Shown: positions 3,644 to 14,267, counted from the first letter of the stretch. The stretch is 27,525 nucleotides of DNA from Candidatus Aenigmatarchaeota archaeon (GCA_039091855.1 JAWCLA010000008.1:320-27844); one strand, 5' to 3'. Numbers and translations are program-made. The notes: a model not told the origin generated them from the sequence alone.

Positions 3644-3822
3644 ACTACCCCTTTGCTTCTTTAAGCACTAATTCTTTCCGAACCTTCTCCTCTCTTTTCA
3701 TAATTTTCGCCTTGTGACTTCCATACAAATCAACATTGACGGAGAAGTCGGCTTCGCCAACTTCCACTTATTTTCGCCTTGCAACAGTTCAGCTTGCTGT
3801 TGGTTATCCTTTTGACAGATGT

Positions 3823-3905
3823 TTGGAAAGACGACTTTGTTATGTTGGTGAAGTTCGTCAATCTATTGGAAAGACGACTTTGTTATGTTGGTTAATCTTC
3901 AAACT
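3823..3905 (+). repeat. Tandem pair of family-1 hairpin elements (27-bp exact direct repeat, period 43)
   Basis: TTGGAAAGACGACTTTGTTATGTTGGT at 3823-3849 and 3866-3892; first unit closes with AAGTTCGTC-AATCT. Confidence 0.8.
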
Positions 3906-3962
3906 GGAATCCTCAAAAAAATATGGATTTAAGCTTAATAAAACGCTTCCCAAGATTTTTCT

Positions 3963-5096
3963 ATGAAAATTGACTGCATTCTTGTGAGGTTTGGGGAGAT
4001 AGGGCTCAAGGGGAAAAACAGGCCCTTTTTCGAGATGGTTTTGGTTAGAAACATAAAGCAAATTTTAAAGGAGAACGGGGCTTCTTTCAAGAAAATTTAC
4101 AGGATACCTGGTAGGTTTGTGATAGAGAGTGAAGACCAAAAATCACTCGAGGCGCTGAAATATGTTTTTGGGATAGTTTCCTTCAGCCCCGCTTTAAAGA
4201 CAGATATAGACATTGAAAAAATAAAGGCAGAATCCCTGAAAGTCCTGATTGAAAGAAATCCTAAAAGCTTCAGGGTTTCTGCAAGAAGGCTTGACAAAAC
4301 AGTAAAAACAACCTCCCAAAAGATTAACGAAAAGGTAGGAGAGTATCTTCTTGGTAAAACCAAAATCCCAGTCAATCTGAAAAGCCCGGAGTTGGAGATA
4401 GGAATTGACTTCACGAAAGACAAAGCCTTCATTTTTGCGGATGAGTTTAACGGTTTGGGAGGATTGCCTGTCGGGGTTTCGGGAAAGGTTTTGTGTTTTG
4501 TTTCAGGCGGTATAGACAGCCCTGTCGCTGCATGGCTTGGTATGAAGAGGGGATGCGAGGCAATACTTGTGCATTTCCTTCACGGAGGCATCAAACCAAA
4601 CAAAATAATCAAATTGCGAGATATTCTGAAAAGATACCAGCCGTCACTGAAACTCTTTATCGTTCCTATGGAGAAGGTAGAAAAGGAAATAATAAGGTGG
4701 TCCCCTTCTGGTTTGAGGATTGTGATTCTCAGGAGAGCCTTCCTGAAAATCGCGGAAAAAATAATGGAGCAGGAAGGTGCAACAGCTGTTATTACGGGGG
4801 ACAACATAGGTCAGGTAGCATCACAAACCCTTCACAACATAAGAGTAATAGACAAGGCTTTCAGCGGAACGATATTAAGACCTTTGCTAGGATATGACAA
4901 GGTTGAGATAATAAGCCTCGCACAGAAAATAGGAACATATCCAATAAGCATTCAGCCTTACGAGGATTGTTGCAGCTTTATGCTGCCAAAGCACCCTGAA
5001 ACAAGGGCGAGTGTTGATGAGGTTATCAAGACAGAGGAAATGATTGATAAGGGGATTTTTGAAGAGGCTTTCAAAAGAGCAGAAGTTGTTTGTTGA
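3963..5096 (+). CDS. thiI: tRNA 4-thiouridine synthase ThiI (THUMP + PP-loop)
   Basis: ILVRFGEIGLKGKNR, GLPVG, SGGIDS, GDNIGQVASQT, RPLLGYDK. Confidence 0.95.
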   Translation: MKIDCILVRFGEIGLKGKNRPFFEMVLVRNIKQILKENGASFKKIYRIPGRFVIESEDQKSLEALKYVFGIVSFSPALKTDIDIEKIKAESLKVLIERNPKSFRVSARRLDKTVKTTSQKINEKVGEYLLGKTKIPVNLKSPELEIGIDFTKDKAFIFADEFNGLGGLPVGVSGKVLCFVSGGIDSPVAAWLGMKRGCEAILVHFLHGGIKPNKIIKLRDILKRYQPSLKLFIVPMEKVEKEIIRWSPSGLRIVILRRAFLKIAEKIMEQEGATAVITGDNIGQVASQTLHNIRVIDKAFSGTILRPLLGYDKVEIISLAQKIGTYPISIQPYEDCCSFMLPKHPETRASVDEVIKTEEMIDKGIFEEAFKRAEVVC

Positions 5097-5101
5097 GGAA
5101 C

Positions 5102-5123
5102 TTGTAATGCGCCCGCATTACAA
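5102..5123 (+). terminator. Perfect hairpin just after thiI stop, terminator-like
   Basis: TTGTAATGCG-CC-CGCATTACAA followed closely by a T-run. Confidence 0.5.
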
Positions 5124-5199
5124 AATTTTATTAGCCAGTTTTTCAACAATAAACCAATTTTGAAATTCTGGTGAGAGACTGCATTACATAAATTCCATC

Positions 5200-5628
5200 T
5201 TGTCCAAAAAAGACATTGGAAAAACAAGGCATGACTGGCTCGTTCTTATGTTGTATGAATCATTAAGAAGCAGTTCTTTTAACCCAACAAATGAGGATTA
5301 CCAGACGGCAAAGGTCTTGTTTGAAAGCTACAATACTGTTCTTGAAAATCTTGAGGAAGCAACAAAATTCATAGGCAATGGCTTCTCTTATCTTGAGCCT
5401 TTCTACAGATACCAAATAGGAAAACACAAGTTTGAGATAGATATTTTCGGTATCAGAGATAACTTTGTTACAGGAATAGAGGTTAAATGCAAAAAGCCAA
5501 AAAGGTTAAAATATCAGAAAAGCCGTTTTGCCGACTTTGCCAGAAAAAAATATGCCGAACTCATCCCGGAACTTTACTATTTCAGCGGAATGAATGGAAT
5601 AAGGCTGGAGGATATTGAAGATTATTAA
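5200..5628 (+). CDS. Small PD-(D/E)xK nuclease-fold protein
   Basis: FEIDIFG...TGIEVKCK matches the E..D..ExK core; start uncertain (TTG 5200 or ATG 5248). Confidence 0.6.
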   Translation: MSKKDIGKTRHDWLVLMLYESLRSSSFNPTNEDYQTAKVLFESYNTVLENLEEATKFIGNGFSYLEPFYRYQIGKHKFEIDIFGIRDNFVTGIEVKCKKPKRLKYQKSRFADFARKKYAELIPELYYFSGMNGIRLEDIEDY

Positions 5629-5649
5629 ATACCACCAACTATTATTATT

Positions 5650-6495
5650 ATGCTTCTTTATGAGTGGATTCTTCTTGCCATTGGAACAGCGGGATTCGGG
5701 CTCGGGGCCTACTGGGATCTTAAAACAACCGAGTTTCCTGACTGGCTTCCTTACTCTATAATACTTGCTGCAATATCAATAAGGGCGGCATTCTCTTGGT
5801 TTATGGGTGACTGGCGGATTCTCCTCTCTTCAATAGTTGTTGGTTGCCTTTTTCTCGGCTTCGGGCTTTTGCTTTCCATACTGAAGCAATGGGGAGATGG
5901 TGACGCCTGGCTTCTTGGCTCCAGGGGATTCCTTTTCCCTGGTTATTCAGGATTCCAAGAGAAGGAAATTTTTATTGATTTTCCTGTTGTTACACTTTTC
6001 AACTTCTTTCTTTTGTCATTCTTTTATCTTGTTGCCTATTCTGTTGCGCTTGGCTTAAAGCACAGGAAGGTTTTGCATAAGTTCAAAGGGGAAATTTCAA
6101 AAGACTGCAGAAGCCTTTTGGTGTTAATAGTGTTTTTCGCTGCTATTTGTTTTGGTGCGGCTTTTTACCTTAGTCTTGGAGTGGGGATTCCACTCGAGAG
6201 AATGACAAACCTGCTCTCCCTCCCGTTCCTTTTCGCTTTTGTCCTTGTTTTCATAAGATACGGGAGGTTTGTGGAGAAAAACCTGTTCAGGAAAAAAATC
6301 CCCGTGAGCAAGCTTAAGCCGGGAGACGTGCTTGCGAATGAGAGATGGAAAGGGTTGACAGAGAGGCAGATAAGGATTCTCAGGAAAAAAGGCGGACACG
6401 TCTGGATAAAAGAAGGCGTCAGGTTCGCACCCGTGTTTATAATCAACCTTTATGTAACCCTCTTTTTTGGCAGCCTGCTTTGGGTTTTTATATAA
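5650..6495 (+). CDS. A24-family prepilin/preflagellin peptidase
   Basis: YWDLKTTEFPD, WGDGD aspartyl motif, multiple TM helices, C-terminal EGVRFAPVF. Confidence 0.88.
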   Translation: MLLYEWILLAIGTAGFGLGAYWDLKTTEFPDWLPYSIILAAISIRAAFSWFMGDWRILLSSIVVGCLFLGFGLLLSILKQWGDGDAWLLGSRGFLFPGYSGFQEKEIFIDFPVVTLFNFFLLSFFYLVAYSVALGLKHRKVLHKFKGEISKDCRSLLVLIVFFAAICFGAAFYLSLGVGIPLERMTNLLSLPFLFAFVLVFIRYGRFVEKNLFRKKIPVSKLKPGDVLANERWKGLTERQIRILRKKGGHVWIKEGVRFAPVFIINLYVTLFFGSLLWVFI

Positions 6496-6612
6496 TAAAA
6501 AATTTATAGTAAATATATGAAAGTTATTTTGTTTTTATTTACATTTGGAATTTTTACCATATAAATAACCCCGCCATAAATGGCGGTGTATTCTTGTAAT
6601 TGGTTAAAGCGG

Positions 6613-7296
6613 TCAGCCAGCTCTGTTAAACTGTTTCAGTGTTGTTTGACCTTTTGGTGTCAGCTTCAGTTTGCCCTCAAGGAATTCTATGTACGGGTCA
6701 TTCGTGCAGACAGGTTTCCTGGTTCCCTTACCGTATGTGCAGTACTTCTTCCTCAATGCAGGATTGTTGGCAACATCTATGTAGAATTGGATGGCCTTGT
6801 CAGTTGTTGAGCCTATTGAACGGAAGAAGTGACCGTCATACCAGAACTGGCCTCCCCAGAAGCGCTTCTTGTCTCTTGGGTCTTTCTGCTTGAGCTATGG
6901 GAATGTCTTGAATATCTTGTTCGCGGAGTATCCTTTGAGTTCGTGAACCGCGTAAGCTGGTGACTGATCGGGTTTCAGGGAGATTAATTGATGAACATGG
7001 TCTGGGTTTATTCGCTTGATAACTATGCGAAACCTCCACTTCTTTCCTGCCTCCTCGAATGCGTAATCGCATATATGTGCTATGCGACCTGTTAGCACAG
7101 GATGCCTGTGTTTGGGTGCAAATACAATGTGGAAGTCGGGTTCGCCAAAGTCTTGCGGCTACACCGCAAGAGATGTCTGCGTCTCGTATCGCATAGAGCG
7201 CAGAGACGTCTCTTCGTCCTTTGCAGCGGAGACGAAGATGCCGCATCTCTTGTGCATAGGCACAAGACTGTGGCTGAATGGTTGTGTTTCCATCAT
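6613..7296 (-). pseudogene. tnpA: IS200/IS605 HUH (Y1) transposase #1, interrupted by a 117-nt insert (7151-7267) and a TAG at 6895-6897
   Basis: Manual translation MMETQPFSHS[insert]FGEPDFHIVFAPKHR...PDHVHQL...ELKGYSA...FWGGQFWYDGHFFRSIG...IQFYI...; AAGGAG SD upstream; stop TGA at 6613. Confidence 0.88.
7151..7267. mobile_element. Four-hairpin palindromic insertion (family 2, possibly nested) in tnpA #1
   Basis: Four TCT...AGA stems separated by short linkers; removal joins FSHS to FGEPDFHIVF in frame. Confidence 0.75.
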
Positions 7297-7660
7297 AAAA
7301 TCAGTGCTCCTTATATATTCGCAGAGCCAAGAAAATCTTGGTGCTGCAATCGATGAGCTGTTATAAGCCCATGCGCCAGCATGGGCTGCTCATCGATATT
7401 TGATATTTGGTTAAGCAGAAATAATGATTTGGTTTCGTCTATACCCCGTCATAAATGACGGGGAATAACATATTGGTTAGAGGTTATTTAACCAAGTCTT
7501 CATCCTCGTTCTGTGTTAGGTTGAGTCTCAACAGCTATGGATAAACGAATTCATGTTTTCACCTTACATATATGGCTTGGATAGTTGCGCAGCTGTTAAC
7601 TGCGCAACACCATCCATTTATTATTTGGTTAGAAACGAGAAATAGAGCCGGCTATGAGTC

Positions 7661-7698
7661 GCAATTCATCTGGTGGCTGAAGCCACAGGATTCTTGCT
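7661..7698 (-). mobile_element. Orphan IS200/IS605-type end remnant
   Basis: Minus strand CAAGAATCCTGTGGCTTCAGCCACCAGATGAATTGC resembles GGCTT(T/C)AGCC-cored IS605 end hairpins (recognition from memory only). Confidence 0.5.
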
Positions 7699-7787
7699 CC
7701 ATAAATTTTAAAATAAAATGTTGAGAGATATATATTCGGGAAAGCCAAAATAAAAATATAATAGGATATGAATATTCTATCAACAAT

Positions 7788-7901
7788 TTCTGCAACGACA
7801 TAAAATGCAAGAATATAAAGAATGGAATAGAAAACATACAATCATTTATCGAGGTATTTGTGGAAGTTTATAACATAGAAATAGGATTTTAATTTAACAG
7901 T
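7788..7901 (+). pseudogene. 3' remnant of an archaeal IS6-family transposase with right terminal repeat
   Basis: FCNDIKCKNIKNGIENIQSFIEVFVEVYNIEIGF* aligns with FYNNINCKDLKSGIE/LQAFLEVFVGLYNLEKGF at ~14097-14200; both are followed by TTAACAGT. Confidence 0.75.
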
Positions 7902-7925
7902 TACTGAAATATAAAAGGTGAATGA

Positions 7926-8093
7926 ATGAGAAAAACTAAGATAATAATATGCCCATTTTGCGATCAAGAAGCTGTAGTTAAATTAAATCAAACACTAATA
8001 AAGTGTAGTAATTGCGGAGAGGCTTTTGAGATTGAAGAAGAGAGCTATACTGACGATTTTTGGCATAATCCCAGAACATCGCATACATTTTAG
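7926..8093 (+). CDS. 55-aa Zn-ribbon protein
   Basis: MRKTKIIICPFCDQEAVVKLNQTLIKCSNCGEAFEIEEESY...; two CxxC motifs, AGGTGA SD; not in the ORF track. Confidence 0.7.
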   Translation: MRKTKIIICPFCDQEAVVKLNQTLIKCSNCGEAFEIEEESYTDDFWHNPRTSHTF

Positions 8094-9002
8094 AATACAG
8101 GTCTGTATAAATCTTTGTTCAACAACCGGTCACAGTTCGCCTGTAGATTATTTACTCGCTATATACCAGTTAAATTTATTGGTTAAATAACTTACTGAGT
8201 GTTTCGTGGTTCTTTTATTTCATTTATTTTGAATAACAGTTGCATATCTGTGTTTGTTACTTATCAAGTTGCTGTATATAACTATTTAACATTACCTATA
8301 CACCAACCCTATAAAATCACTTCTTGCTTTTGATAACTACTTAAGATTTTACTTAAAGTAGTGTATTGAGTTTTTGGCTGTGTTTTAACATTCAGATTTA
8401 TTCGCATTCAATGTATATCTATTTGGACATATTCTGTTGTAAAGCTTTTTTTGAAGTCAAAATTTCAAAGAAATTGTGGAAGTATTTGGTTTTGAATATA
8501 GAAATCATTAGAAGTAAGTCTGTCCCCTGTGTATACTACAAAACATTTAAATGCTCGGTTAATTTGCCCGCTCGCCTATCCAACAGTCACATGCAATAGG
8601 TGAATAAGACTGGTGGAATTTCGGCGAGCACTGTTAATTGGCTAAATAATGGCATAGGCTTGACTGCGACTTTGGCATGGATTGGTTCCTCACGTAATTT
8701 GACAATTGTTGCAGGTCTTTTCCGAGTGAATCGAAGTGATATGATGGGTTCCACAAACCAGATCCACAGAAATACTGCTTCTTCAGTATTGGATATTCCT
8801 GAAGCAGTTTCTTAGCAGTAAAGCCTTTCAGCTTCTTGACTATGTTAGGTAACGAGGAAAGACCAATATCCAGAATCAAATGCACGTGGTTGCTGTCCAT
8901 TCCCAGTTCATTGCATTGTATGTTAAGTTGGTTTATTGCTTCCCAAAGCAGTTGTTCACATCGAGCTTTTATTTCAGTAATATCAAATATTTTATGGCAG
9001 TA

Positions 9003-9068
9003 TCGTGTCTCACCTTCTGCTGGAGAAGAGACATCTCTGCATCTTCAAATAAATGGAAGGGATGCAGA
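9003..9068. mobile_element. 66-nt two-hairpin insertion (family 2)
   Basis: Minus strand TCTGCATC...GATGCAGA-GATGTC-TCTTCT...; core matches 7200-7215 at 15/16. Confidence 0.72.
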
Positions 9069-9102
9069 TTTCACCTTGAATGCAAGGTGAACCCCAATAA
9101 AT

Positions 9103-9142
9103 AGACTGACGGCTTAAGCCAATGTAACCAAGCCGTCCTCCC
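9103..9142 (-). mobile_element. Family-1 hairpin element inside tnpA #2
   Basis: GGGAG-GACGGCTT-14nt-AAGCCGTC-AGTCT; 34/40 identical to 13838-13877. Confidence 0.8.
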
Positions 9143-9366
9143 ATTTCTGCCAACGCTAGAGCTATGGCTGACAAAATCGGCCATGGCTTCACCTCCCTGT
9201 TAATTTTAGATATTGATTAATTAGTGAAGCCAGAATTAATTCGGGATGGGCCAAGCCCATACCCACCACCGGTCACAGATCGGTGGAATTCTTTATTTAA
9301 ATATTAATTGATGATCATTTAGGTTATATTTAAACAAGCACTCATAGCCAAACTGACTATAAGAAT

Positions 9367-9882
9367 TCAGGCGTTGAATTTCAGGTTCCATATCACATCT
9401 AATATATTCAAGAACCGCTGCATATAAATAATCCTGAATCCTTTAATACCGTGATAGATGCGCCTCAACAAGGTGTTCCAGACTTCTATTTGGTTGTTGC
9501 TCAGGGAATAAAATTGCTGTTTATGTATGAGCAGTTTATTTTTCAAGTACATCTGCACATAGTTCAATTTTAGATTTCTCGTTCTGAACACCTTTCGATG
9601 GTTAGCGAGTAAGTATTCCGTTAATCATTAACTATGATATCAGGTTTACCTACTGTACATCTTACCTTTCTAAGAGAAACTATTGAGGATGTTTTGTTTC
9701 TTTGTTCAGACATATGGTGAAATAACATTGTTGTGGAATCAATAACATCGAACATAGACAGAAATAAATTGCCTATAAAAAATTACGCTTAACAATATGG
9801 TTTGTTTGAGAAACTATGCCTAATATATTTGGAAAATCTAAGTTGGGAAAATGACCTTACATTTATTCCATCTGTAAACTGA
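9367..9882 (-). pseudogene. Heavily decayed IS6-like DDE transposase
   Basis: Fragments SVYRW, DVIDSTT, GKPDIIVND*, NNQIEVWNTLLRR...GFR...QRFL spread across stops and frameshifts. Confidence 0.6.
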
Positions 9883-10045
9883 TAATTATTATAAAACCGT
9901 ATTTCCATAATTCTGAATACATCTTATTTAACCAGATAGTATAGTACACATTTTCATTACTTTATAGTATTATTTATGGTTTTACAGAATTAAGTTCGAA
10001 GAACCTTTTTCAGAAATAAAAACTCTTTCAAACAATTAATTAAAG

Positions 10046-10417
10046 TTGAATATGCCAAAAAGGAAAAAATCGAGAAAAACCAGAAAAAATAAGAGAAAGA
10101 GGCGCATTGAAAAATGCCTTAGCGCGGAAGAGAAAAGGACCTTGCTCCTTAAGGAGCAGACGATACTGTCCAAAGAACGAACAATTCTCTCCTTTATGAG
10201 GACAGGACTCACATTCGTGACTGTTGGCTTTGCTATGTTTGCCGCAGGTCCCTGGCTTTCCCAAGGATTCAATGTGAGCCCTTGGGTTTCAATAATAATA
10301 GGGGTATCAGTTGCTTTTGTTGGTTTTTTTGAGATAGTGGAATCATTCAGGAGGCTTAAGATTTACAAAAACAAGATGAGAGAAATAACAGAAAGGCTTG
10401 GCGAGGAAAACGTATAG
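10046..10417 (+). CDS. DUF202/YidH-like small membrane protein
   Basis: LSKERTILSFMRTGL motif followed by two TM helices; ATG 10052 is an alternative start. Confidence 0.8.
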   Translation: MNMPKRKKSRKTRKNKRKRRIEKCLSAEEKRTLLLKEQTILSKERTILSFMRTGLTFVTVGFAMFAAGPWLSQGFNVSPWVSIIIGVSVAFVGFFEIVESFRRLKIYKNKMREITERLGEENV

Positions 10418-10459
10418 CTTAAGCTAAACAAAACGGTTTCTCTTACCACCGGAAACCGT

Positions 10460-10948
10460 TCATTGCCCGGATTCCTTACATTCGCTGCAAACCCATTTTC
10501 CTTCCCAAAGTTCTGCTTCCTCAGAATACTCACCACATTCCTCGCATATTCCTTCAGAAACAGTTCTTTCACTATAGGATATTGGCTTTATCCCGTCAAC
10601 CCACACGCACCCGCTGTTCTTATCCACTGTCCAGTCAGAATCAACAGGTAGCATCATAAAAAGCGCCCTTGCGAGTTTCCTGTCTTTTTCCTCAAGCCAG
10701 TGAAATGCCTCTGCTATGTAGCAGAATGGACAGACAGTTACTTCCTTCTTTGAAAGACATTTCAAACAGGGCAAGATTGTCCTGTTGCTTTCCACTGAGT
10801 TAAAGATTTCCAAGAAAAAGCGACTGAACTTCCTGAACTCAGCTGACAGCTTTCTCGGCAGCCACTTCAATATGTCTTTGGACAGGCAATCCGGACAGAT
10901 GTAACTCCATACAGGATCCTTGCATATCTGGCATACCGCAAGCTGCAT
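10460..10948 (-). CDS. Hypothetical multi-CxxC (Zn-finger) protein
   Basis: Six CxxC pairs (CQIC, CPDC, CLKC, CPFC, CEEC, CSEC); GGGTGA SD before ATG 10948. Confidence 0.75.
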   Translation of the reverse strand: MQLAVCQICKDPVWSYICPDCLSKDILKWLPRKLSAEFRKFSRFFLEIFNSVESNRTILPCLKCLSKKEVTVCPFCYIAEAFHWLEEKDRKLARALFMMLPVDSDWTVDKNSGCVWVDGIKPISYSERTVSEGICEECGEYSEEAELWEGKWVCSECKESGQ

Positions 10949-11134
10949 CCCTTTCACCCTTCCTTCTCCATTCAAGTGGGCAAGGTGGGAAACTCATCAA
11001 CCTGCTGTTAAAAAGCCTATTAAAAAGCATTTCTGTTGCAGAAAATAGATTATCAAATGCATCGATGTTTGCCTGTTTTTTCGACATTAGTGCCAATGCT
11101 TAAGCGTATAAATTTGGCTGCTGAAATATTGGGC

Positions 11135-11791
11135 ATGAAGGAGATTTTTCCAGGAGTTTGGAAATTGAAAGGGGAAATAGTCACAAAAAACCTTGTTCCG
11201 GGTTCAAGGGTTTACGGGGAAAGGACAATAGCTGAAAAAAAGTCAGAGTACAGGTTTTGGAACCCTTACAGGAGCAAGCCGGCGGCTGCAATAATGCTCG
11301 GGCTCAAGAGTTTTCCATTGAAAGAGGGTATGAAAGTCCTTTATCTGGGAGTTGCAAGCGGGACAACAGCGAGCCATTTCAGCGACATAGTCGGTCCGGA
11401 AGGGATAATCTACGGGGTCGAGATTTCAGAGCGCTCTATAAGGGACCTTAACCCTGTTGCAGAAAAGAGGGGAAACATAGTGCCCATACTTGCCAATGCA
11501 AAAAAACCAGAGGATTATTCCTGGGTTGAGCCTGTTGACATAGTTTACCAGGATGTTGCGACAGACGACCAGTCGGACATTCTCATAAGGAACTGCGAAA
11601 TGTTTCTCAAGCCTGACGGGTTTGCGATAATTTCCATAAAGGCGCGCTCTATTGATGTCACGAAGCCACCGAAGGAGGTTTACAAACAGGAGCTCCAAAA
11701 GCTCAAAGGATTTTTTGATATTGTTGAAAAAATAGAGCTCGAGCCTTATGAGAAAGACCACCTTTTTGTCGTTATGAAAAGGAAAGGTTGA
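11135..11791 (+). CDS. flpA: Fibrillarin-like rRNA/tRNA 2'-O-methyltransferase
   Basis: VYGE, YRFWNPYRSK, VLYLGVASGTTASH, IKARSID, LEPYEKDH; ATG 11135 chosen. Confidence 0.95.
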   Translation: MKEIFPGVWKLKGEIVTKNLVPGSRVYGERTIAEKKSEYRFWNPYRSKPAAAIMLGLKSFPLKEGMKVLYLGVASGTTASHFSDIVGPEGIIYGVEISERSIRDLNPVAEKRGNIVPILANAKKPEDYSWVEPVDIVYQDVATDDQSDILIRNCEMFLKPDGFAIISIKARSIDVTKPPKEVYKQELQKLKGFFDIVEKIELEPYEKDHLFVVMKRKG

Positions 11792-11829
11792 ATTTTATTT
11801 TTGCCCGACAAATAATATATTGGAATGTT

Positions 11830-12267
11830 ATGGAGATGCAAACAGAAACTTCCTATTCCAACAGCTTTTTGTACGAAGAAAAATTTACTGAAGACTACAA
11901 TTATCTTATTTACGGGGGAAAGGTTGTTTTTGAAAATGATGTGGAACCGTTGCTGAAAAGGGTTGAAGACTCTCCTGAAGACGTAAGGAAGATTGGTTCT
12001 GCAATAAAGGAAGGGGTTAAAAAGTTTTTGGGTTTTTACAAGAGGGCTTTTGTGTTAGATGACTACAACCCGAAAGACAAGATAACTCCTGATTGCCTGT
12101 TCAACCGTATATTTTTTATTAACAAGAAGATTGAGGGAATCAACAGTAATGGTGGGGAAATGCTTCCTTACATAGAAATTGCCGAGGAATACAGGGAATA
12201 CGAAAAGGTTGTAAAAGATGCTGATTTAAGACATTTCATAAAAAATGAAAGCCAATATTGGCCATAA
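11830..12267 (+). CDS. Hypothetical protein
   Basis: Open frame filling the gap between flpA and tuf; no motif recognised. Confidence 0.55.
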   Translation: MEMQTETSYSNSFLYEEKFTEDYNYLIYGGKVVFENDVEPLLKRVEDSPEDVRKIGSAIKEGVKKFLGFYKRAFVLDDYNPKDKITPDCLFNRIFFINKKIEGINSNGGEMLPYIEIAEEYREYEKVVKDADLRHFIKNESQYWP

Positions 12268-12280
12268 AAATAAAGAGGGA

Positions 12281-12310
12281 GGGGAGAGAAAAGGCCTGAC
12301 CTTTCTCCCG
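12281..12310 (-). terminator. Hairpin plus pyrimidine tract downstream of tuf
   Basis: GGGAGAAAGG...CCTTTTCTCTCCC on the minus strand right after the stop codon. Confidence 0.5.
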
Positions 12311-12318
12311 CTAAAAAA

Positions 12319-13590
12319 TCACTTTGCCTTTACCAGGTCTATCACAACTCCTGCCGCAATCGTCTTGCCCATGTCTCTTATGGCGAATTTTGCAAGCTGG
12401 GGAAAGTCAGACTGCTTCTCCAACACAACAGGTTGTGTTGGGACTGCCTTTATTATTGCAGCATCTCCAGCCTTCAGCATGTCTGGATGCTCCTCAAGCG
12501 TTGCGCCTGTCTTCGGGTCTATCTTCTTCACTATTTCTGTTATCTTGCAAGCAACGTGTGCTGTGTGCATATGGAAGACGGGCGTGTAACCCTTTGTTAT
12601 CACTGTCGGGTGCTGCAACACTATTATCTGTCCTGTGAATTCCTTTACCACCGTTGGTGGATTGTCAGGGTGACCAACAACATCACCGCTCTTTATCTGG
12701 TTTTTTGCTACTCCCCTGACATTGAAGCCTATGTTGTCGCCAGGCTCTGCCTTTGGCAGCTGCTTGTGGTGCATCTCTATGCTCTTTACCTCAGCAACTA
12801 CACCACTCGGCTCAAATATTATCTTGTCATTAGGCTTCAAGACTCCTGTCTCGACCCTTCCAACAGGAACAGTTCCAACCCCTGTTATGGAGTAGACATC
12901 CTGCACAGGAAGCCTCAGTGGCTTGTCTATCGGCTTTTCAGGCGGTTCTATTCCCTGATCCAGAGCCTCCACGAGCGTTGGACCCTTGTACCATCCCATC
13001 TTGTCAGATTTCTTAACTACATTGTCTCCCATATATGCAGACACAGGGACGAACAGGATTTTTTCTATCTTGTAGCCAACTGATTGGAGTAGTTTTGAGA
13101 CAGCTTCCTTAACTTCCTTGAACTTTGACTCCTCATAATTTACGGCGTCCATCTTGTTAAGGACTACTATCATCTGGTTTATTCCAAGGACCTTTGAAAG
13201 GTAGACGTGTTCCTTTGTCTGGTCCTGGACACCATCCTTTGTTGACACCACAAGTATTGCAGCGTCTGCCTGCGAAGCCCCTGTTATCATGTTCTTTATG
13301 AAGTCCCTGTGGCCAGGAGCGTCAATTATTGTGAAGTAATACTTGGGTGTGTCGAATCCCTTGTACATAAGGTCTATCGTGACCCCTCTTTCCCTCTCCT
13401 CCTTCAGGTTGTCCATAACGAAGGCAAACTCGAAAGTCTCCTTCTTGAGCTCCTTAGCAATCTCCTTGAGCTTCCTCATCTCTTGCTCAGGAATGGAACC
13501 TGAATCGAAGAGCAGTCTTCCTATCAAAGTTGATTTACCGTGGTCTACGTGACCAATAGTCACAATGTTAATGTGTGGTTTTTCTGCCAT
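12319..13590 (-). CDS. tuf: Translation elongation factor EF-1alpha
   Basis: [39 protein letters not shown]. Confidence 0.98.
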
Positions 13591-13837
13591 TCAATCACCC
13601 GCTTTTTGAAAAAAAACCAGGGCATTTGTTGCCTGGTATAATACCCGTTTGGGCTTTATCTTAAACCCTTTATATCAAGGGCAGTTATTTAGTTAACAAT
13701 TGTATATATAAAGATTTTATAAAGATTGAGACTGTTAACATAATAATGTTGGGAGCATAGTTATATGCAGTAAAACCACCATTACATATGCATGAACCTC
13801 CACCCAACAATAGAGAATAGTATCAGGGACATGATTT

Positions 13838-13877
13838 GGAAGGACGGCTTTATGAAATTGGCTTAAGCCGTCAATCT
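13838..13877 (+). repeat. Family-1 hairpin element
   Basis: GGAAG-GACGGCTT-14nt-AAGCCGTC-AATCT. Confidence 0.8.
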
Positions 13878-13914
13878 AAAAACATCTTCAAGCGCAACAA
13901 GAAGCCAGATAATT

Positions 13915-13976
13915 GGAAAGACTGCTTCACATCATTAAATGATAAAACCGTTAATGGTGTGAAAAGCCGTCAATCT
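13915..13976 (+). repeat. Family-1 hairpin element with expanded, paired loop
   Basis: GGAAA-GACTGCTT-[CACATCATTAA...TTAATGGTGTG]AA-AAGCCGTC-AATCT. Confidence 0.75.
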
Positions 13977-14267
13977 GGATTTGGCTATAAGGGTAACGCC
14001 AAATGGAGCTTAAGAGGATTCGAGCACGAACACATGACCTTCGGCTTGAGGAACAGCACAGAGAGGCTCAGGCTGGTCAAGAACAGGACCAAAGGGTTCT
14101 ACAACAACATCAACTGCAAGGATTTGAAGAGCGGCATAGAAACCTCCAGGCGTTTCTCGAGGTTTTTGTGGGGCTGTATAACCTTGAAAAGGGCTTTAAG
14201 TTAACAGTCAAAAATTAGCAACTTTTAGATTTTTATATCAAACTGCCCAATATAAGCAGGAGATAGG

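Follow-up and report, generated by a model that had tools for sequence, protein, structure and literature searches.

A dispersed mobile hairpin of an archaeal order, probably a REP-like element that acts as an intron in stable RNAs and a passenger in dead transposase genes

A short hairpin recurs in the window analysed here, a stretch of 27,525 nucleotides from a Candidatus Aenigmatarchaeota archaeon (genome G000), and a preliminary description had placed it in the 5' ends of transposase genes. What is this repeat, and how did it come to stand there? Four of the five copies originally claimed are present; the other, at 3868-3905, is a half copy without a fold (z +0.87), yet the covariance model scores it (E 1.2e-4). 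The features of the window are as follows.

3706..3820, plus strand: separate REP/BIME-like mosaic array of two units
3825..3864, plus strand (the purine-loop strand): copy 1, full element with two stem mismatches (covariance model E 1.8e-10)
3868..3905, plus strand: copy 2, half copy in tandem (43-nt period) that keeps the left arm and the loop but has no right arm
7151..7267, minus strand: branched hairpin of 117 nt from another family, inserted in codon 10 of tnpA#1 (6613-7296)
8634..9184, minus strand: tnpA#2, IS200-type Y1 transposase pseudogene that hosts copy 3 (PF01797, E 4e-14)
9003..9068, minus strand: a further insertion in tnpA#2, a 66-nt double hairpin unrelated to the element that brings in an in-frame stop
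9103..9142, minus strand: copy 3, full element that follows codon 13 of tnpA#2, no BHB on either strand
13730..14209, plus strand: IS6-like remnant that carries two element copies, has two internal deletions and ends in 10-bp terminal inverted repeats
13838..13877, plus strand: copy 4, full element that follows codon 13 of the IS6 ORF (E 8e-13)
13915..13976, plus strand: copy 5, long-loop variant (E 0.02)

Two of the transposase copies are identical at 34 of 40 positions, as first described, and copies 3, 4 and 5 fold better on the strand that had been named for them (z = -4.6, -4.4 and -3.6). Copy 1 folds weakly (z -1.6 on the plus and -2.3 on the minus strand) and stands at the end of the array of the second repeat family; thiI, which would have served to compare its site, had no match in five relatives. 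Copy 4 lies at the centre of a short palindrome, and sequence identical to it occurs in the IS6 on contig C14 and at both ends of C1. The loop of copy 5 is similar to the one in a 23S rRNA intron on C8, and in place of copy 5, C14 shows 249 bp flanked by a 7-bp inverted repeat. A plasmid collection held no match for 13800-13990.

The repeat unit is a 40-bp hairpin with an 8-bp stem and a 14-nt loop, or, seen as duplex, two 13-bp arms at fixed spacing with a conserved central AT between them. Its 30-nt core, at two mismatches or fewer, gave 3 matches versus 0.02 expected and none in 100 shuffles. Genome-wide, with spacers of 11-17 nt, the loop measured 12-15 nt in all 39 core hits and 14 nt in 26 of them, against a background of 0-5 per spacer length. 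The loop is thus not freely variable between 13 and 36 nt, as had been proposed; the 36-nt loop marks a small subfamily with long loops, which the 23S intron and IS6 have in common. At stem position 5/26, the 88 copies had G-C in 64, A-T in 20 and no match in 4, so that 84 were paired versus 55 expected, and 17 both-sided changes occurred in 83 rows (covariation score 1/500 shuffles), counts that are not independent of relatedness. Loop positions of the aligned copies showed no pairing above expectation. Feet of the form GGA(A/T)N and N(A/T)TCY flank the hairpin on both sides, in columns that are biased because the alignment oriented the copies by these feet, and of 82 informative copies, 44 have a G-T wobble in the feet that speaks for the purine-loop strand, versus 16 for the other. 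Neither the window (at E <= 1) nor the element in 60 loci had an Rfam match, and the element is not described in the open-access literature searched. The repeat is therefore a real family, a previously undescribed dispersed mobile hairpin, and in this respect, together with its empty alleles and its connection to introns, the preliminary description is supported.

How widely is the family spread, and are transposase genes its usual site? The covariance model (150 of 325 candidates scored) gave 41 distinct loci in the 689-kb genome. Only 8 of these loci, corresponding to four events, are held by IS genes, none of 19 tnpA loci in relatives was associated with the element and none of the 35 copies viewed in the relative G014 had a transposase host, so accumulation in IS genes as a rule is not supported. 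ORFs of at least 150 aa contain a single one of the 39 core hits, though they cover 77% of the genome. The exact core was found in 15 of 49 genomes of the same order and in none of 151 from other orders, with 0-34 copies per genome among 47 genomes of the family. Many of the copies of this short palindrome are extragenic and stand in tandem or mosaic arrays; the element often occupies linkers of the REP/BIME-like mosaic array, one module of which matches 77 times genome-wide, and the same array layout recurs on C4, C6, C23, C33, C36 and C38. A hairpin on C7 was seen in two forms, with a 4-nt loop or with the element in the loop's place. No clean intergenic pair of empty and filled sites was obtained, reads on the C4 array giving mosaic joints only, and the empty/filled pairs at hand showed no consistent target-site duplication. 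A MITE of a DDE transposase was rejected, as the arms are unlike the IS6 ends and the duplication is not constant at such pairs. Among 166 copies screened for open frames on both sides, none was judged by eye to be a spliceable insert in a housekeeping ORF. One copy in the relative G003 reads through in frame near the C-terminus. Among the matches listed in viral contigs, none of 80 loci had both feet, and we read these matches as chance.

This distribution bears on the view that the repeat is a duplex protein-binding site, an operator or recombination site with two 13-bp arms around a central AT near the starts of strongly expressed genes. A spacer fixed at 14 bp with unpaired, conserved central bases would suit such a site, as would the many copies at the 5' ends of tRNA and mRNA genes. 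However, the arms covary as a stem, copies are also present within rRNA, downstream of stop codons and between genes that converge, insertion sites differ among genomes of one genus, empty alleles exist and a resolvase was found in just 1 of 47 genomes, making a duplex site highly improbable.

The main home of the element is stable RNA. In G014, 18 of 35 copies lie inside stable RNA genes, 8 beside them and 1 in an rRNA spacer, and in relatives the element forms 45-49-nt insertions in tRNA and rRNA, in T- and D-loops of tRNA and in rRNA loops. Orthologous rRNA lacks the insertion at seven short-loop sites, where it measures 45-49 nt (47 nt at four), and these empty orthologues and the T-loop junctions indicate that removal restores the conserved RNA. 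The layout at stable-RNA sites is 1 nt, the element, 4 nt complementary to the exon and 2 nt. On the sense strand, a BHB register was present in 23 of 34 stable-RNA copies versus 4.7 with swapped flanks, compared with 3 of 34 (versus 3.9) on the antisense strand and, for intergenic copies, 9 of 75 versus 11.4 expected in flank swaps. A strict BHB with both outer helices was found in 14 of 34 on the sense and 7 of 34 on the antisense strand; the 11 copies without a register include some nested in larger introns. The purine 2x2 loop, said always to lie on the sense strand, does so within the window but mostly not beyond it: stable-RNA copies have fewer than two purines in the sense-strand loop in 24 of 34 cases and more than two in 2, and in 28 the 5' loop position is a U. 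Stable-RNA copies are read on the pyrimidine-loop strand, opposite to the IS copies of the window, and by G-U count their sense strand is not clearly favoured (11 versus 6, 17 ties). The genome has two EndA genes, on C19 and C12, one a full-length match to PDB 4fz2 (E 1.5e-97), and one encoded EndA is epsilon-like; the element in tRNA and rRNA is predicted to be removed by EndA as an intron. As several orthologous intron sites carry other or decayed hairpins, the element may be long-standing cargo of introns and not their creator. ARAGORN finds 4 tRNA genes in 689 kb; tools of this type miss the tRNA genes of this lineage because of the insertions that they carry.

Do the transposase copies also behave as introns? 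The gene tnpA#2 is bounded by IS200/IS605-type end hairpins unrelated to the element, and true end-pair derivatives of it are present separately on C5, C8 and C35. Between two anchors it has 53 nt where the intact homologues L037 and L038 have 6, a net insertion of 47 nt (about 9100-9146). In IS6, whose Pfam support, measured on the fuller C14 copy, lies below the curated cut-off (PF13610, E 0.004), a contig of run X2 skips 54 nt and has 7 other letters, again a net insertion of 47 nt. The search for empty alleles was thus successful in both genes, and the common frame shift that had been claimed for them was borne out, removal of 47 nt restoring the frame in each. Contig depth at the IS copies in run X1 was far above that of single-copy DNA, a measure that does not give copy number. 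The 117-nt insertion in tnpA#1, with empty alleles in X1 and X2, belongs to a different family, yet shows the same 5'-end targeting. Each of four IS families was first hit at codons 10-14.

A restored frame would be expected if these copies were relaxed BHB mRNA introns through which broad-specificity EndA splicing gates transposase expression. Element-bearing IS6 with three different left flanks in G000, the register of copy 5 on the sense strand and the epsilon-like EndA agree with such introns, as do the mRNA substrates known for EndA (PMC7714728). Nonetheless, a strict scan found a BHB in none of five IS copies on either strand, and copies 3 and 4 and those on C15 and C35 had no sense-strand register at all. 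The hit at copy 5 is one in six IS copies at a chance of ~14%, and splicing there would run into a stop within a few codons. Neither would removal of the element yield an intact protein, as tnpA#2 has its second insert with a stop and IS6, with its deletions, has lost most of its core. The earlier view of these copies as introns is therefore not upheld, and gated expression by splicing seems the least credible of explanations, with very little probability. The transposase association is a side effect, not the main point.

If not concentrated in transposase genes, could the element still be moved by one? An IS200-type HUH TnpA had been suggested as the likely mover of a REP/PATE-like element that concentrates in IS genes; a tetranucleotide in the 5' foot would act as guide. 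The hairpin has a conserved unpaired foot, forms tandem arrays and makes no target duplication, three tnpA families of G000 bear hairpin insertions, the foot wobble favours one strand, and the feet may resemble the guide sequences of IS608. However, Y1 TnpA does not co-occur with the element (4 of 16 element-rich versus 7 of 31 element-poor genomes, Fisher p = 1.0, a weak test given incomplete MAGs and badly assembling IS genes), the 19 tnpA loci examined in relatives were free of the element, both inside the gene and for about 1 kb around it, and the tnpA elements of G000 and its relatives end in other hairpins. Furthermore, only IS-type subclass 1.1 TnpA is reported for archaea (PMC6006769). 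TnpA is thus an improbable mover. Reverse transcriptase was found in 2 of 16 element-rich versus 9 of 31 element-poor genomes, and tyrosine recombinase in 43 of 47, though not in G014. No mobiliser tracked the element among the four candidates searched, TnpA, reverse transcriptase, resolvase and tyrosine recombinase.

Alternatively, the intron RNA may have come first: excised hairpin introns of abundant rRNA and tRNA precursors would be re-ligated into other transcripts and written back into DNA, with intergenic and IS copies as escapees. The orientation of stable-RNA copies follows transcription, as their U at the 5' loop position indicates, 12 of 19 leader copies begin 23-35 nt after a TATA-like box (counted with no null, and with two rows identical), the IS insertions measure 47 nt like introns, and a 23S intron of this genome is similar to copy 5. 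Yet intergenic copies retain no trace of the donor's exon-complementary tetranucleotide or register, IS copies 3-5 have the opposite orientation and no reverse transcriptase was found in G000, G001-G003, G014 or G019. We consider this origin unlikely.

Overall, with a probability of roughly 60%, we favour a model where the repeat is a REP-like, non-autonomous hairpin that is an EndA intron in essential RNAs and a passenger in dead IS copies. The element of ~46-47 bp would land in, or replace, the loops of pre-existing hairpins in transcribed DNA, a target suggested by the T- and D-loops, the rRNA loops, the C7 hairpin, the IS6 palindrome and the 249-bp replacement. Movement may be as folded single-stranded DNA or RNA, and is likely copy-and-paste, feeding archaeal introns. 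In tRNA and rRNA genes, the tRNA splicing endonuclease would splice the element out, and the exon-complementary tetranucleotide would stem from selection or from an invaded pre-existing intron rather than from the insertion step. In the dead transposase genes of the window it would be an inactivating passenger. Our best guess for the mover is a host-encoded activity common to the lineage's other small hairpin families. The model does not explain why the IS copies of the window fold better on, and face, the strand opposite to the RNA copies, nor the first hits at codons 10-14 in all four IS families.

How does such an element compare with known systems? REPs and REPINs served by a RAYT have a GTAG-type unpaired tag at one end and a tnpA that is flanked by, and co-occurs with, the repeats, whereas our element has no such tag, has feet on both sides and showed neither association (0 of 19 loci; 4/16 versus 7/31, among incomplete MAGs). 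PATE-type derivatives are hairpins with a short unpaired foot that make no target duplication. In contrast to these and to IS200/IS605 ends, the element is a single hairpin, forms the end of none of the tnpA elements studied and does not co-occur with TnpA. The end hairpins of IS200/IS605 (PMC6006769) likewise have a short unpaired foot, no target duplication and hosts with Y1 TnpA. Also comparable are bacterial REP, BIME and REPIN sequences, especially CGTC-tagged REPs, which Di Nocera et al. 2013 (PMC3733652) describe as 20-40-bp palindromes in tens of copies, patchy among species, near gene ends, tandem or mosaic, sometimes inside ORFs, and, in the CGTC class, without a dedicated transposase. 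For the element, four candidate families were searched and gave no such enzyme. The right arm of the element is CGTC followed by A-T-rich bases, as in that class. However, compared by description, CGTC-tagged REPs have an unpaired CGTC tag, an 8-9-bp stem starting with AT, a 4-5-nt loop and a CCA tail, whereas the element, in an archaeal host, has its CGTC among the paired bases of the stem and a loop of 14 nt; main sites in tRNA and rRNA with a BHB register are not reported for REPs in the part of PMC3733652 available. The transposed BHB tRNA introns of Thermoproteales (Fujishima et al. 2010, as relayed in PMC4090602 and bioRxiv 10.64898/2026.10.13.758758) and 16S hairpin introns (PMC4496867) are also short (<50 nt), at many tRNA or rRNA positions and with BHB junctions. 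Unlike them, the element stands between genes and in IS genes without a BHB as well, so that a donor family is visible, and most sites need no homing endonuclease. Archaeal mRNA BHB introns (cbf5; the HVO_1309 5' UTR; PMC2738675, PMC7714728) similarly break the frame near the coding 5' end with a short hairpin in hosts with a broad-type EndA, but copies 3 and 4 have no BHB and stand in pseudogenes.

A bolder version holds that this new miniature mobile element is a direct source of archaeal BHB introns: it would read highly transcribed hairpin loops, gain a target-complementary tetranucleotide and so become a spliceable intron in tRNA, rRNA and other stable RNAs, owe its movement to a host enzyme outside the known transposase classes and also silence IS elements via the first 15 codons of unrelated transposases. 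We put this forward tentatively, as an improbable reading. The mechanism behind the Thermoproteales introns is called unknown in PMC4090602, and a 2026 preprint on Asgard tRNAs that tested copying, mobile elements and reverse transcription arrived at no general intron route (10.64898/2026.10.13.758758). Here, one defined 40-bp sequence exists in three states, free between genes, in dead transposases and with splice junctions in essential RNAs, and empty alleles exist too, so that both the enzyme and the succession of steps are open to direct tests.

The hairpin repeat is real and non-random. In the window, its core, GACGRCTT-N14-AAGYCGTC (30 nt), matched three stretches at up to two mismatches, against 0.02 expected, and all five stretches named in the preliminary description were found in place:

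3825-3864, +, copy 1
3868-3905, +, copy 2
9103-9142, -, copy 3, in tnpA#2
13838-13877, +, copy 4, in the IS6 remnant
13915-13976, +, copy 5, in the IS6 remnant

Copies 3 and 4 share 34 of 40 positions, as claimed, whereas copy 2, taken for a degenerate copy, is just a tandem left half and has no fold. Rfam gave no window match at E <= 1. Across the 689-kb MAG (38 contigs, the window being C37), the core scan returned 39 hits at spacers 11-17, all of 12-15 nt and 26 of 14 nt, with 0-5 hits at each other spacer length; the loop, described as varying from 13 to 36 nt, is 36 nt long and internally paired in copy 5 but nearly constant genome-wide. Just one core hit, with two mismatches and unrecovered by the covariance model, lies in an ORF of at least 150 aa. 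This model, built from 83 copies, gave 41 distinct loci (150 of 325 candidates scored). A longer exact pattern occurred at 25 GTDB loci, 16 in named Aenigmatarchaeota, five in unnamed archaea and four in bacteria, the last read as chance. Of 49 same-order genomes, 15 contained the exact core, one of these also giving a control hit, and none of 151 genomes of other orders had it; counts per genome within the family ranged from 0 to 34.

Among the 88 unique copies that were used once 13 non-archaeal or doubtful loci had been removed, the stem was almost invariant save pair 5/26 (G-C in 64, A-T in 20, unmatched in four), which showed 17 both-sided changes in 83 rows with relatedness uncontrolled. 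Just outside the stem are two positions that pair less than expected (4 observed versus 17 expected), and 3-4 looser pairs lie beyond them. Self-pairing of the loop did not exceed expectation and its central bases are kept (A15 in 65/88, T16 in 75/88). The unit is therefore a hairpin whose fixed loop resembles a protein site. Such a loop would also suit an operator, that is, a double-stranded protein-binding site, but covariation of the arms at pair 5/26 makes this very unlikely.

Judged by their structure, the copies in stable RNA count as introns of the bulge-helix-bulge (BHB) type, predicted to be spliced. At seven short-loop sites the stretch is missing from orthologous rRNAs; the inserts measure 45-49 nt (four of them 47 nt) and comprise 1 nt, the element, 4 exon-complementary nt that vary by site, and 2 nt. 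This register was found on the sense strand of 23/34 stable-RNA copies (flank-swapped mean 4.7, maximum 10 in 300), on the antisense strand of 3/34, and on either strand of 9/75 other copies, where 11.4 were expected; a stricter BHB scan gave 14/34 sense and 7/34 antisense. As the register is enriched in RNA genes but elsewhere does not exceed expectation, the tetranucleotide appears to be neither the element's own nor left by ordinary insertion. Other or decayed hairpins occupy some rRNA intron sites in other genomes, so the element may equally well have invaded older introns or created new ones. The MAG encodes two tRNA splicing endonucleases (EndA):

C19:129-1355, EndA gene L122, 408 aa, three-unit type
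C12:5287-5883, EndA gene L121, 198 aa, single unit

One matches along its length PDB 4fz2, which we take to be the broad-specificity epsilon2 EndA of PMC3488258. The long gene is followed, 53-130 nt downstream, by two copies of the element. ARAGORN reported just four tRNA genes in the whole MAG, three with 56-88-nt introns; tRNA genes are heavily interrupted, and the 16S gene is absent from the assembly. The RNA-gene copies resemble the Thermoproteales BHB hairpin introns of PMC4090602 and PMC4496867, and PMC3293823 proposes a mobile-element origin, via a recombinase element, for Caldiarchaeum tRNA introns.

On the sense strand of stable RNA genes the 2x2 loop is pyrimidine-rich in 24/34 copies versus 2/34 of opposite kind, and leader copies agree weakly (7 versus 2, n=15). 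The proposal that the purine-loop strand is the sense strand in every case holds for the window's IS copies, in which the mRNA strand bears both the purine loop and the G-U feet, but fails in stable RNA genes, so that rule is local. The loop of copy 5 can be aligned with that of an intron in the 23S gene on C8, the most direct sign that sequence has passed between rRNA introns and IS genes. Spread as intron RNA copied back into DNA would fit this. Intergenic copies lack the register, however, and the window's IS copies face the opposite strand, leaving this origin rather unlikely.

The supposed accumulation in IS genes did not hold: four events (two in IS6, one in the tnpA#2 family and one in a third tnpA, on C15) account for the eight of the 41 loci that lie in IS genes. 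Roughly twelve, copies 1 and 2 included, occupy linkers of another REP/BIME-like array, and others are found within tRNA genes or next to them, in the 23S gene or between genes of every orientation. Among 35 copies viewed in the relative G014 and classed by eye, 18 were within tRNA or rRNA genes, eight flanked such genes, one was in an rRNA spacer, eight were at mRNA ends and none was transposase-borne; G003 has six inside tRNA/rRNA genes and the rest mostly intergenic. One G003 copy (L165:443) lies close to the C-terminal end of a coding gene whose frame stays open across it, resembling a Rickettsia-type intragenic palindrome. Next to tRNA genes and stop codons, the element often has as neighbour a sister hairpin (L015, L069, L075, L087) that shares its feet but has another stem, of 9 bp, and a loop of 4-5 nt. 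A second repeat family, one module of which gives 77 genome matches, forms same-direction arrays of units that measure 66-82 bp and contain a swapped GC hairpin:

window 3706-3820, second-family array
C4:8880-9360, second-family array
C12:15100-15320, second-family array
C38:20190-22391, second-family array

Empty alleles, sought to fix the boundaries, were found for both tnpA#2 and IS6. At copy 3, 53 nt replace 6 nt of the intact homologues in G011 and G019; at copy 4, 54 letters replace seven in a contig of run X2 (a related IS6 allele, compared over a side of 23 letters). Each is a net insertion of 47 nt, in line with the equal frameshift originally noted. Were these copies mRNA introns, a BHB would be expected, yet neither the strict nor the register scan found one on the mRNA strand at copies 3 and 4; copy 5 has the register once, about the chance rate, in a reading that leads to a stop. 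Both genes carry further lesions (in tnpA#2 a second, stop-containing insert of 66 nt; in the window's IS6 a loss of 249 bp at copy 5 and another downstream), and mRNA introns are the least probable of the readings weighed. In the MAG, IS6 with the element is found next to three left flanks and so likely moved afterwards, helped in trans. In an IS6 copy at C1:62581-62626, copy 4 is fused directly to the sequence following copy 5, as expected from right-arm recombination or from a contig-end assembly artefact. Window 7480-7560 (-) holds what remains of a tnpA of the third family, the one on C15; of the element it keeps just a decayed left arm, missed by the covariance model. Gene-less, PATE/MITE-like derivatives join the left and right ends of tnpA#2:

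C5:2594-2809, short tnpA#2 end derivative
C8:9641-9856, short tnpA#2 end derivative
C35:9106-9285, short tnpA#2 end derivative

Hairpin loops appear to be the insertion targets: copy 4 sits at a palindrome centre and copy 5 in the loop of a 7-bp inverted repeat, and further cases are a C7 hairpin found with and without the element, and T- and D-loops. Codons 10-14 hold the first interruption, once by another hairpin family, of four unrelated IS genes:

window 8634-9184, -, tnpA#2
window 6613-7296, -, tnpA#1
window 13792 onward, +, IS6
C15:11780-11900, IS gene

This pattern and a TATA-like box 23-35 nt ahead of the start in 12/19 leader copies, a count with no null, make targeting near transcription starts possible. 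The tnpA#1 insert (7151-7267, -) is a 117-nt branched hairpin at codon 10, on a small palindrome's axis, with empty alleles in runs X1 and X2; a relaxed BHB is another possible reading of its junctions. The internal stop of tnpA#1 at 6896 is missing from the X1-X3 contigs covering it and from most X4 depth.

The hairpin is probably mobile. Movement by TnpA, as first suggested, is improbable: Y1 TnpA occurs in 4/16 element-rich and 7/31 element-poor genomes without tracking the element, although these genomes are incomplete and related, and at 19 tnpA loci in ten relatives no copy lies within the gene or close to it, the nearest being within tRNA genes 1.0 and 1.3 kb off. Reverse transcriptase occurs in 2/16 versus 9/31, a resolvase in 1/47 and tyrosine recombinases in 43/47, G014 not being among the 43. 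Of 46 family genomes, 11, for the most part element-poor ones, carry reverse transcriptase genes (L316-L321, 345-414 aa).

The element works like REP/RPE-type non-autonomous hairpins. By description, CGTC-tagged REPs, which have no known transposase, are closest (PMC3733652), but their tag and loop features are not those of the element. We found no published description of it in the open-access literature searched. Overall, we favour, at a probability of roughly 0.6, a REP-like non-autonomous hairpin that would be an EndA-spliced intron in RNA genes and a passenger in dead IS; the element, itself undescribed, is a variant of already known kinds, the REP-type hairpin and the BHB intron.
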